From the NCBI GenBank assembly GCA_963718915.1, contig CAVRAI010000013.1, forward strand, positions 420,001-452,000: a stretch of 32,000 bases of DNA, written 5' to 3'. This stretch comes from an uncultured Chloroflexia bacterium (GTDB taxonomy: Bacteria > Chloroflexota > Ktedonobacteria > Ktedonobacterales > JADMIN01). The notes under the pieces were generated by a model. That model searched no databases. It saw nothing but the letters and a program-made list of their open reading frames with translations, and was not told the origin of the DNA. Below are positions 18,036 to 26,331 of the stretch, in pieces. The first letter of the stretch is position 1; each line of letters starts with the position of its first letter. Position numbers and translations under genes: made by a program.

Positions 18036-18863
18036 TCAGGACGTTCGGGCTACATCAAAATAGTGTGATCGCGGTGAAACATCGAGTCGGCGCAGCATCG
18101 TTTCGTGCGCCCGCCATTCCTCGGTGTCGGCGAGTGGCGGCAGCAATCGCAAGCCGCTGCCCGGCCCATAGCGGCGATCCAGCGCCAGCCGCAGCATATG
18201 GTCGGCAAAGTGCGGATTCTTCGGCAAAAGCGAGCCATGCAAATAGGTGCCGTAGGTGTTGCGATAGACACATCCCTCGCGTCCGTCTTCGCTGTTGTTA
18301 CCGTGGCCAGCCAGCACGCGCCCCAACGGCTGCGCGCCGCTCCCGAGATACGTACGGCCGCCGTGATTCTCGAAGCCAATGAGTGTGCTCTCACCCCATG
18401 CCAGGGCGACGTTGCCGATGCAGCGGGCCACCTTCTTACCCTTGTGGATCGTCCAGGCGTCGAAGATACCGATACCTTCCAGGTCCGGCCCTTCGGCTGG
18501 ATGGTAGTATTTCGCGAGGAGCTGGTAGCCGCCGCAGACCGCCAGTACCGGCATATCGGCCTCCACCGCGCGCGCAAAGCCGTCCATTTTCACCTCACGC
18601 AGATCGCGGGCCACTTCGTCCTGCTCTTTATCCTGCCCCCCGCCGATGAATAACATGTCATAGGCATCGGGATTGAGTGGTTCGCCAATCTCCAGCGGGG
18701 TTACCTGCAAGGTCACACCACGCCAGGCGGAGCGCTGTCGGAGCACGATGATATTGCCCCGGTCGCCATACATATTGAGCTGGTCGGGATAGAGATGGCC
18801 CAGTCGTAGTGTCGGACCATCCATCGGGCCTGTTGCCGATGCGAATGGCGTAACGTCAGACAT
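18036..18863 (-). CDS. gatD: Glutamine amidotransferase GatD (CobQ/CobB-type GATase subunit of lipid II isoglutaminyl synthase)
   Basis: LRLGHLYPDQLNMYGDRGNI, FIGGGQD, nucleophile motif LAVCGGYQLL, and GTYLHGSLLPKNP. The ATG at 18863 overlaps the murT stop (ATGTCTGA). The track extension to 19064 lies inside murT in another frame. Confidence 0.85.
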   Translation of the reverse strand: MSDVTPFASATGPMDGPTLRLGHLYPDQLNMYGDRGNIIVLRQRSAWRGVTLQVTPLEIGEPLNPDAYDMLFIGGGQDKEQDEVARDLREVKMDGFARAVEADMPVLAVCGGYQLLAKYYHPAEGPDLEGIGIFDAWTIHKGKKVARCIGNVALAWGESTLIGFENHGGRTYLGSGAQPLGRVLAGHGNNSEDGREGCVYRNTYGTYLHGSLLPKNPHFADHMLRLALDRRYGPGSGLRLLPPLADTEEWRAHETMLRRLDVSPRSHYFDVARTS

Positions 18864-20349
18864 CTTTCTGCTCCCAGTAGCGCGGGGTGTACCCTCGCCG
18901 CGAAATCTCCCCACGAACAGCCAGCATCGCGGTATACGTTGGAACGATATAGAGCGTCTCACCCGCTGGCACATGTGCCAGCGCCGCGGTAAGCGCCGCG
19001 CCAATATCCTGTTCGACAGTATCAGGTGGCGTTCCGGCATATTTGAAGCGGAGCGCGAGATCATAGGCGCGAATGCCGGAGGTCGTCAAGCTGGCAATCT
19101 TGCCTATCACCTGCTCAAAATCGGCGTCCCAGATCCACGAGACATCCTCACCATCCGCCGCGCGGTCATTTAGAATGAAGAGCAGGTGATGCTTTGCCTC
19201 GTCCTGGCCGAGCGCGCGCAGCACCTCGTTCAATCCAGTCGGATTCTTCGCCAGCAGCAGAAGCGCGGCCTGGTCGCCCATGACGATGCGCTCGCCACGG
19301 CCGAACGCTGGCGTAAAACTTTCCAGTGCATCGTGAATGGCCGGGAGAGTCGCGCCCATCACCACACCTGCCGTCGCAGCAGCCAGCGCGTTATACACAT
19401 TGTAGAGGCCGGGCAAATACACCGTGGCATCCGTCTGGCCGAGCGGCGTTTCCAGGGTGAAGCGAGAGCCGTCGAGGCCAATGAAGCTCACCTGACGCGC
19501 TCGCACGGCGGGGTCGGGCCTGGCGAAACCACAGGCGGGGCAGCGCCAGTGGCCAATATGGCTGTAGAATCGTTCGGTGACGGTCAGCAACTGACGACAG
19601 CGGGGACACGTGCGCGTATCCACCACGTGAACACGCTGCGCATCGTCCTCAGATGTTGGCGCATCCTCGATACCGAAGTAAAAGATGGGGCTGCCAGCCG
19701 GTCGAGCATCCGCCAGCGCCGCGACCGCCGGATCGTCGGCATTGAGTATCAGCGTGGTCGTGGCGGGCAGCCGCGCCAGCGCATCGCGCCAGCGCTCGGC
19801 GACGGTATCCACCTCGCCATAACGATCCAACTGGTCGCGAAAGAGGTTGGTGACGAGAATCGTGCGTGGCTGTAGCTCTGAGACTACCTGCGGAAATGCC
19901 GCCTCATCTACCTCGAAGACACCCGCCGCGTCGCCCTGCTCGCGTAGTTTGCCGCTGAGCGCCGCATGCGCCATCAATGATGTAGCGATGCCGCGCGCCA
20001 GATTCGATCCTTCTCGGTTGCGCCAGACACGCAGACCCGCTTGCCGCAGGACGCTGGTGACGAGTGCGCTGCTGGTGGTTTTGCCATTCGTTCCGGTTAC
20101 CACAATGTTGCCATGTCGCATCTGTGTGCCAAGGTGTCTGGTGACATGAGGATCGACGTAGCGGGCAACCAGACCCGGCAGACTGGTGCCACCACCCAGT
20201 CGCAGGCGGCGCAGCATCGTACCCGCGGCTCGCCCGGTGGCGATGGCCGCACTAGCACGAATGCGAAAACGCACCCGGTCGCGTGGCGCGGCAGGCAGAG
20301 TAGTATGTGAACGACCACTCGACGCGGTCACGGGTGTTGGCTGCTTCAT
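18856..20349 (-). CDS. murT: Mur-ligase-family protein MurT (lipid II isoglutaminyl synthase, ligase subunit)
   Basis: VVTGTNGKTTSSALV (Mur ligase P-loop), a Cys4 ribbon CPRCRQ...CPACGF, and a C-terminal DUF1727-like region (DVSWIWDADFE). It pairs with the downstream gatD. Confidence 0.88.
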   Translation of the reverse strand: MKQPTPVTASSGRSHTTLPAAPRDRVRFRIRASAAIATGRAAGTMLRRLRLGGGTSLPGLVARYVDPHVTRHLGTQMRHGNIVVTGTNGKTTSSALVTSVLRQAGLRVWRNREGSNLARGIATSLMAHAALSGKLREQGDAAGVFEVDEAAFPQVVSELQPRTILVTNLFRDQLDRYGEVDTVAERWRDALARLPATTTLILNADDPAVAALADARPAGSPIFYFGIEDAPTSEDDAQRVHVVDTRTCPRCRQLLTVTERFYSHIGHWRCPACGFARPDPAVRARQVSFIGLDGSRFTLETPLGQTDATVYLPGLYNVYNALAAATAGVVMGATLPAIHDALESFTPAFGRGERIVMGDQAALLLLAKNPTGLNEVLRALGQDEAKHHLLFILNDRAADGEDVSWIWDADFEQVIGKIASLTTSGIRAYDLALRFKYAGTPPDTVEQDIGAALTAALAHVPAGETLYIVPTYTAMLAVRGEISRRGYTPRYWEQKDV

Positions 20350-26195: not shown

Positions 26196-26302
26196 GTCAA
26201 TAAACTCTCTAGAATACCAGGCACAACGCATACCGTGCGCCACGACGGCGCCATGCTCATAGCGCGATCCGCGGAGACAAACCAGCCACTCGCACCTGGG
26301 GC

Positions 26303-26331
26303 ATTATACTCTCTCGTTAGAACTGGGGCAA
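26303..26331 (-). promoter_or_regulatory. Sigma-70-like promoter candidate for the chemosensory operon, overlapping the folK 3' end
   Basis: Minus strand: TTGCCC (26331-26326), a 17-nt spacer, then TATAAT (26308-26303). It lies about 100 nt upstream of the ATG at 26195. Confidence 0.5.

Follow-up and report, generated by a model that had tools for sequence, protein, structure and literature searches.

A murT-gatD pair at the 3′ end of a receptor-less chemosensory-type gene cluster, conserved across a family of Ktedonobacterales

Gene content of the locus

Amidation of lipid II governs cross-linking, and the MurT/GatD enzyme pair, which is essential in Gram-positive pathogens, is a drug target there. 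To our knowledge, little is known about how its expression is organized or regulated outside the Firmicutes and Actinobacteria. We analyzed a stretch of 32,000 nucleotides (nt), referred to here as the window, from an uncultured Chloroflexia bacterium of the order Ktedonobacterales (GenBank assembly GCA_963718915.1, contig CAVRAI010000013.1, positions 420,001 to 452,000), in which murT and gatD directly follow a set of genes resembling those of chemosensory (Che) pathways. Six open reading frames (ORFs) occupy the minus strand between positions 26331 and 18036, in the order PATAN/DUF4388, CheY-like receiver (REC), CheW, CheA-REC hybrid, MurT, and GatD. The original prediction, which was made from the nucleotide sequence, had assigned these identities; all six ORFs lie at the minus-strand coordinates it gave, and their Pfam matches agree with the assignments. 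The genes and the associated features are listed below with Pfam E values in parentheses and protein lengths in amino acids (aa).

26303-26331, minus strand: sigma-70-type promoter, −35 TTGCCC at 26331-26326, 17-nt spacer, −10 TATAAT at 26308-26303; overlaps the 3′ end and stop codon of folK
24942-26195, minus strand: PATAN/DUF4388 protein, 417 aa (DUF4388, 3.5e-23); full ORF 24942-26243
24823-24941, minus strand: intercistronic spacer between PATAN and REC, 119 nt, with short tandem units containing GAGG
24328-24822, minus strand: single-domain CheY-like receiver, 164 aa (Response_reg, 1.8e-26)
23518-24255, minus strand: CheW-like coupling protein, 245 aa (CheW, 4.1e-07, weak and partial)
20346-23525, minus strand: hybrid CheA-type histidine kinase, 1059 aa (HATPase_c, 1e-13; CheW, 2e-15; Response_reg, 4.4e-25)
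20364-20381, minus strand: 18-nt stretch CAACGAGTGCTGAGGGAG in the 3′ end of cheA, containing GAGGGAG, with its end 14 nt before the murT ATG; almost no variation among 8 congeners, even at synonymous sites
18856-20349, minus strand: MurT, Mur-ligase-type subunit of lipid II isoglutaminyl synthase, 497 aa (MurT_C, 1.5e-33; Mur_ligase_M, 2.7e-19)
18036-18863, minus strand: GatD, glutaminase subunit, 275 aa from the ATG at 18863 (GATase_3, 4.8e-37)

The start of the PATAN protein was placed at the ATG at 26195, the start codon conserved in an alignment of congeners. The match of the CheW-like protein exceeds the Pfam cut-off (30.1 bits versus 23.5) and covers profile positions 2 to 62 of 138. 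At each of the three junctions where stop/start overlaps had been described, the sequence reads as claimed: the cheW stop overlaps the cheA start in ATGAATGA (23525-23518), cheA and murT overlap in ATGA (20349-20346), and murT and gatD overlap in ATGTCTGA (18863-18856). The step from these overlapping codons to stoichiometric co-expression, which the original prediction also took, is an over-reading.

Conservation of the cheA-murT-gatD linkage

The distribution of this layout was examined in a class sample of 169 genomes from one order, Ktedonobacterales, comprising four families (f1 to f4); the family of the window, f1, consists of uncultured soil Chloroflexota. The C-terminal half of CheA is encoded directly upstream of murT in 38 of the 45 f1 genomes, representing 14 of 17 genera. 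In at least 11 f1 genera, the sequence allows a 4-nt start/stop overlap between cheA and murT (ATGA or GTGA), two more have a 4-nt gap, and in three close relatives the cheA TAG ends 5 nt before the murT ATG. The −8 overlap between murT and gatD is likewise kept in most f1 loci. Two loci depart from this arrangement: in G013, about 650 nt separate cheA from murT, and in G014, murT and gatD are separated by an ORF of 158 aa whose N terminus has a membrane anchor or signal sequence (L102:5702-6178). The original prediction had described the synteny from a single genome; with 14 of 17 genera, it is conserved across the family.

The linkage is missing from the three sister families. In f2, the order is folK-PATAN-REC-REC-CheW-CheA followed by a convergent gene, and murT-gatD stands alone between a divergent yebC gene and nadE. 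Family f3 lacks an orthologue of the window-type CheA, and its murT-gatD lies behind a GH113 gene, as judged from the retrieved loci, a subset of the 112 f3 genomes. In f4, PATAN-REC-CheW-CheA is present and MurT is absent altogether. No cell-wall genes were found beside the orthologous Che clusters of f2 and f4. The survey of CheA-murT adjacency covered the phylum Chloroflexota: in none of 40 genomes from 36 or so other families is CheW or the kinase core of CheA encoded in the roughly 4.4 kb that precede murT, and an ordinary receiver gene lies 1.6 to 3 kb from murT in 3 of the 40. In these other families, MurT/GatD is a pair by itself, as the original prediction had held in calling it normally a stand-alone operon. 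Set against that stand-alone operon, the pair in the window forms the 3′ end of what reads as a six-gene operon, with the murT start overlapping the stop of a CheA-type kinase gene. A literature search found no paper linking MurT/GatD with CheA, chemotaxis, or chemosensory systems, in agreement with the original statement that no such link had been described. The cheA-murT-gatD layout is thus confirmed as real, conserved, and unreported.

A conserved promoter upstream of the cluster

The promoter candidate that had been proposed upstream of the first gene, TTGCCC-17-TATAAT, is present and gains strong support from phylogenetic footprinting: neither hexamer changes among 6 congeneric genomes, although the folK stop codon and the flanks vary, and a TTGnnn-17/18-TATAAT sequence with a perfect −10 occupies the same place upstream of PATAN in 17/17 loci of f1 and f2. 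The region as a whole holds 8 promoter-like sites, compared with 3.1 ± 1.8 in shuffled sequences. Positions 17000 to 27000 contain no predicted minus-strand terminator, and no conserved promoter was found before REC or cheW (the PATAN/REC spacer was scanned in 16 family loci).

The argument that the gene overlaps leave no room for an internal promoter proved invalid, because promoters can lie in upstream coding sequence. Our scan found candidates inside both cheA (CTGACA-18-TATCAT at 20486-20457, a 10/12 match, 108 nt upstream of the murT ATG) and murT (TTGACG-18-TATGAT at 19089-19060). Under one alternative, murT-gatD would be transcribed mainly from its own promoter in the 3′ part of cheA, and the overlap would be a by-product of genome compaction. 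The cheA-internal site would suit this model, an essential housekeeping function would gain from having its own promoter, and the wide spacing of cheA and murT in G013 points the same way. As a murT promoter of the family, however, the cheA-internal site was rejected: its −10 is lost in the more diverged congeners (TATCAT to GCATCA), and its −35 coincides with the conserved receiver motif LT(S). Moreover, none of 17 other family loci has a site scoring ≥9/12 within 400 nt upstream of murT, in contrast to the promoter upstream of PATAN, found in 17/17 loci. We consider separate transcription of murT-gatD very unlikely.

The proposal that the genes are coupled in both transcription and translation fared better. 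One conserved promoter, the lack of any conserved promoter upstream of murT, REC, or cheW, the lack of a predicted terminator, and the −4 overlap in at least 11 genera all speak for it, and the best reading of the locus is a six-gene operon with one transcript from a housekeeping-type promoter. The CAACGAGTGCTGAGGGAG stretch just upstream of murT may be a ribosome-binding, coupling, or re-initiation element for murT. In the 5′ leader of the putative operon (26210-26302, minus strand), about 30 nt directly after the −10, GCCCCnGGTGCGAGTGGCTGGTTTGTCTC, are conserved in 6 congeners and are followed by a variable stretch; this leader of roughly 100 nt could be a structured or regulatory 5′ untranslated region.

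The Che-like module lacks a receptor and a pilus motor

The hybrid kinase carries an Hpt-type HKIKG motif at aa 293, intact N, G1, and G2 boxes (RNAVAHGIE 619, DDGRGV 660, GHGIGL 713), a P5 CheW-like domain, and a C-terminal receiver with its D-D, D, T, and K residues (VVDDS 939, VLDLEMP 983, LTSRA 1014, YLTKP 1034). By these motifs, CheA-REC looks competent as a kinase. The Hpt assignment is a motif assignment, as the Pfam Hpt and dimerisation models gave no match, and NCBIfam CheA models match the kinase at 3.9e-58 and 6.1e-43, both below cut-off. The PATAN protein is the best-conserved protein of the module, with 48 to 61% identity across genera. It has no receiver domain in a Response_reg search extended to an E value of 5, and no family or known domain matched its C-terminal ~240 aa.

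Within the DUF4388/PATAN domain, an insert at aa 64-117 of the protein (window positions 25845-26006) matches the NCBIfam model of an MshE-related cyclic-di-GMP-binding motif at 37 bits versus a cut-off of 38, and its match to the structure of the MshE N-terminal domain (5HTL) is weak (E value, 0.053). The PATAN protein may be a cyclic-di-GMP receptor.

No gene for a methyl-accepting chemotaxis protein (MCP) is present in the window cluster. The only two MCPsignal matches in the genome containing the window (G000) are on two other contigs, C14 and C9. The match on C9 (C9:234373) is an orphan MCP of 844 aa. The match on C14 belongs to a second, complete Pix-like cluster (C14:155000-170000, L114) that encodes a PATAN protein, two receivers, CheW, a 631-aa MCP, and a 1432-aa CheA-REC. 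The ~1500-aa CheA of this C14-type cluster is present in every genome of the family and in the other families sampled. The window cluster is a receptor-less paralogue of the complete Pix-like cluster on C14.

The search for a PilB/PilT-type (T2SSE) ATPase gave no credible match in the genome of the window, the best having an E value of 1.8e-5 over 50 residues. That genome is only 90% complete, and the absence is therefore likely rather than proven. None of the 5 genomes of the same genus encodes the ATPase, nor do 2 genomes of genus g9, one of which is complete; a single copy is present in 13 of 22 genomes of the family. With no pilus ATPase in the window's genus and g9, the Che-like systems there must have an output other than pili and motility.

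These features set the window module apart from the systems that it most resembles. The Tax1 system of Synechocystis sp. PCC 6803 (PixG, PATAN-REC; PixH, REC; PixI, CheW; PixJ, receptor; PixL, CheA-REC) and the Pil-Chp system of Pseudomonas aeruginosa belong to the type IV pilus (Tfp) class of chemosensory systems (PMC11181946; bioRxiv 10.1101/2021.06.11.447907). The window cluster shares with Tax1 the order of a PATAN protein, a single-domain receiver, CheW, and a hybrid CheA with a C-terminal receiver. Unlike these systems, it has no MCP, its PATAN protein lacks a receiver (a separate receiver gene follows), and its CheW match is partial. It also occurs in a genus without a PilB/PilT-type ATPase and has murT-gatD appended. 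Because the cluster has no receptor, its PATAN protein no receiver, and the genus no pilus motor, the module should not be filed as a Tfp system, although it resembles a Che phosphorelay.

The alternative cellular function (ACF) class, as defined in a published classification (PMC3447774), offers a second comparison. The likeness lies in a Che-type kinase module occurring where neither flagella nor pili can be driven, so that an output other than motility is expected. A receptor is part of the known ACF systems, in most cases together with CheB/CheR, and their output can be identified, for example a transcription factor or a diguanylate cyclase. We know of no ACF system with peptidoglycan-precursor enzymes in its operon. 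The receptor-less relay might itself be an ACF pathway tied to peptidoglycan synthesis, in which amidation is made or tuned together with the signalling proteins and the phosphorylated receivers or the PATAN protein act on MurT/GatD or the wall-synthesis machinery; we think this quite unlikely.

MurT/GatD is an ordinary, single-copy enzyme pair

MurT aligns over its full length with solved structures (PDB 6fqb, 5.8e-69; 6gs2, 1.7e-62). Its P-loop GTNGKT (aa 86) lies within the Mur-ligase central domain, and the CPRC (aa 248) and CPAC (aa 270) motifs of its Cys4 ribbon align with the cysteines of 6fqb_A. The MurT_C (DUF1727) domain is matched in full, and the Asp-rich segment NDRAADGEDVSW at aa 394 corresponds to NANYADGIDTSW of 6fqb_A, with both Asp residues kept. 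GatD matches PDB 6gs2_A at 4e-51, with Cys110 on the catalytic Cys94 of Staphylococcus aureus and the YLHG histidine (His209) conserved. The window pair thus resembles those of S. aureus (PDB 6GS2 and 6H5E) and Streptococcus pneumoniae (6FQB) in having two adjacent, overlapping genes, in the MurT P-loop, Cys4 ribbon, and MurT_C domain with its NDxxADGxD segment, and in the GatD CGGYQ cysteine and YLHG histidine. Relative to those enzymes, neither protein has an extra domain or insertion, and the alignment runs end to end except for a short N-terminal extension.

The NCBIfam MurT and GatD models score highest by a wide margin, although the scores stay below the equivalog cut-offs (NF045635, 258.8 bits versus 800, for MurT; NF045636, 202.4 versus 400, for GatD); such shortfalls are expected in a phylum this distant, and the cut-offs look far too high for it. 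In the MurT/GatD family, a conserved Asp of MurT_C completes the catalytic triad of GatD. The pair is a typical MurT/GatD in all the sequence features tested, and amidating activity is predicted. It is the only MurT/GatD pair in the genome of the window (5.45 Mb in 17 contigs), and the complete genome G015 likewise has a single pair. The Che-linked copy in the window is therefore the housekeeping enzyme.

Evolutionary history and separability of the two modules

In a tree of 72 MurT proteins, the Che-linked sequences form one clade (Shimodaira-Hasegawa-like approximate likelihood ratio test [SH-aLRT] support, 98), sister to the unlinked type-1 MurTs of f2 and f3 (95) and nested within a Ktedonobacteria clade (99). 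A second group, here called type 2, forms a separate clade (SH-aLRT support, 100). The simplest account of this topology would be that a vertically inherited murT-gatD moved once, in the ancestor of f1, to a position behind the last gene of the Che operon.

In two lineages of the family, murT-gatD was later lost and the Che genes remained. Within genus g12, G018 has the linked arrangement, and in G048 and G049 the series folK-PATAN-REC-CheW-CheA runs straight into the nucleotide-sugar gene that otherwise lies downstream of gatD. Comparison of the DNA of G048 and G049 with that of G018 (L043 and L044 versus L101) reveals a clean deletion of ~3.3 kb that starts at the cheA stop, with alignable flanks. 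It takes murT, gatD, and ~0.9 kb of downstream spacer; searches of the gap between cheA and the downstream gene found no remnants of murT or gatD even at an E value of 10, and only a type-2 pair is retained in both genomes. A further genome, G047, has no type-1 MurT. In G023, a 91%-complete assembly without MurT, the Che cluster is kept and is followed by 2.8 kb of other sequence. With no MurT of any kind in G023 and in family f4, their peptidoglycan is presumably not amidated by the MurT/GatD route. Because the modules occur apart in G048, G049, G023, f2, f3, and f4, the Che module does not need the linked enzyme, nor the enzyme the Che module.

The flanking genes provide a control for synteny. 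The folK gene adjoins PATAN in all the f1 loci that were examined and in f2 as well. Of the 14 f1 loci retrieved with wide flanks, 11 have the gene of an 830-aa nucleotide-sugar enzyme downstream of gatD, and in loci without murT-gatD this gene comes straight after cheA. Since these unrelated neighbours are about as syntenic as cheA and murT, conservation of adjacency is by itself weak evidence of a functional link. The original prediction, in which the Che pathway either has amidation as an output or senses the state of the envelope, is accordingly not supported: the modules occur independently, their neighbours are about as syntenic, and co-expression had been over-read.

The strongest form of that prediction would be direct post-translational control, in which binding of MurT/GatD by the C-terminal receiver of CheA, by the CheY-like protein, or by the PATAN protein depends on phosphorylation and tunes lipid II amidation, the enzyme being the output of the pathway. 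Its sole support is the adjacency and translational coupling of cheA and murT, together with the lack of any other identified output. Against it stand the absence of an added domain or insertion in either enzyme subunit, the placement of the Che-linked MurTs as ordinary vertical orthologues of unlinked ones, the independent loss of either module, and the ability of a type-2 murT-gatD, which is never beside Che genes, to replace the linked pair. We hold direct control to be highly improbable.

A looser connection would require less. The Che-like module might be an ACF pathway for envelope or filament growth in these mycelial monoderm bacteria, into which murT-gatD was recruited so as to share its regulon rather than to be controlled directly. 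The linkage in 14 genera with the 4-nt overlap kept would fit, as would the persistence of murT-gatD beside cheA at breaks of downstream synteny (L095, L096, and L102), the need of a Tfp-type module for another output in a genus without a PilB/PilT-type ATPase, and the downstream neighbour, an enzyme of nucleotide-sugar (envelope precursor) metabolism. This idea is difficult to square, however, with the Che modules that lack murT-gatD in G048, G049, G023, f2 (where the pair is unlinked), and f4, with the MurT/GatD pairs that lack a Che module in f3 and in the 40 genomes of other Chloroflexota families, and with the absence of cell-wall neighbours from the orthologous clusters of f2 and f4. In addition, the promoter has a perfect −10 and no sign of a regulated architecture, and folK, which has no envelope link, is equally conserved at the other end. 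Recruitment into a shared regulon is, in our view, unlikely.

Operon capture as the favoured explanation

The explanation that we consider probable is operon capture: a housekeeping murT-gatD would ride on a constitutively transcribed, receptor-less Che-like operon, translationally coupled to cheA, with no regulatory link between the modules. Under this explanation, PATAN-REC-cheW-cheA-murT-gatD would be transcribed from the one conserved sigma-70/SigA-like promoter at the folK/PATAN junction. The first four genes would encode a receptor-less paralogue of a Pix/Tax1-like chemosensory phosphorelay with the architecture of the Tfp class, in which CheA would autophosphorylate on its Hpt histidine and then donate phosphate to two acceptors, the receiver at its own C terminus and the CheY-like protein; in the window's genus, which has no pilus ATPase gene, the output of the relay would be something other than type IV pili. 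MurT would use ATP to activate the α-carboxylate of the D-iso-Glu of lipid II, and GatD would supply ammonia from glutamine. The murT-gatD pair, vertically inherited in Ktedonobacteria, would have been placed behind cheA once in the family ancestor and kept since. The ATGA and ATGnnTGA overlaps would couple translation, so that co-transcription and coupled translation would give the two modules a shared expression while leaving them functionally separable. What the sequences show is the identity of the genes and their overlaps, the promoter and its conservation, and the distribution of the two modules with their separate losses; co-transcription, constitutive expression, and the absence of a regulatory link are inferences.

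Several points weigh against capture without a regulatory link. The −4 overlap is retained among CheA C-terminal halves of only 36 to 50% identity, which fits selection for coupling as well as inertia, and the same can be said of the way in which murT-gatD stays with cheA in G015, G017, and G014, where downstream synteny breaks. The lack of a pilus ATPase in the genus implies a non-motility output and leaves room for one related to the cell wall. Finally, the promoter scans use the sigma-70 consensus, and the rules for promoters in Chloroflexota are poorly known, so that internal promoters of other types would escape them.

The sole MurT/GatD copy depends, as read from the sequence, on the promoter and translation of a chemosensory-type operon throughout the family. 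A functional link would make this the first Che-type pathway tied to peptidoglycan precursor chemistry and would give a first handle on the role of Tfp-type Che modules in non-motile, pilus-less Chloroflexota. If the link is not functional, the locus would represent a clean and datable operon capture, in which a housekeeping pair joined the 3′ end of an unrelated operon, became translationally coupled, and was later precisely deleted in lineages keeping a second copy, as in g12, where one of two redundant murT-gatD pairs was removed. Beyond the layout itself, the analysis brought out the lineages with a deletion, the control with flanking genes, the promoter footprint across the family, the presence of the pair as a single copy, and the missing pilus ATPase.

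Neighbouring genes and additional murT-gatD variants

Two neighbours flank the cluster and are given for context.

26317-26841, minus strand: folK (HPPK), co-directional upstream neighbour (Pfam HPPK, 9e-42; TIGR01498 above cut-off)
14518-17010, minus strand: nucleotidylyltransferase/mutase fusion, 830 aa, downstream neighbour (Pfam)

The fusion protein joins a sugar-1-phosphate nucleotidylyltransferase (GlmU/ManC-like, with a left-handed beta-helix) to a GlmM/PMM-type mutase and is about 80% identical across genera of the family. Its NCBIfam matches are below cut-off (Arch_GlmM, 302 bits; man1P_GTase, 275 bits), and either a GDP-mannose or a UDP-GlcNAc route is possible.

Ktedonobacteria have up to two murT-gatD pairs; the second, type 2, has a MurT of about 40% identity and always its own GatD (loci L111-L113, L115, and L116). 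The distribution of the type-2 pair is patchy: it is present in genera g12, g16, g8, and g15 and in families f2 and f3, and it does not occur in genera g1, g5, g6, g2, and g11. The type-1 MurTs of f3 (L027-L030 and L041) carry an insertion of ~60 to 70 residues between the positions matching residues 445 and 459 of the window MurT, within a frame of ~600 aa compared with 497.

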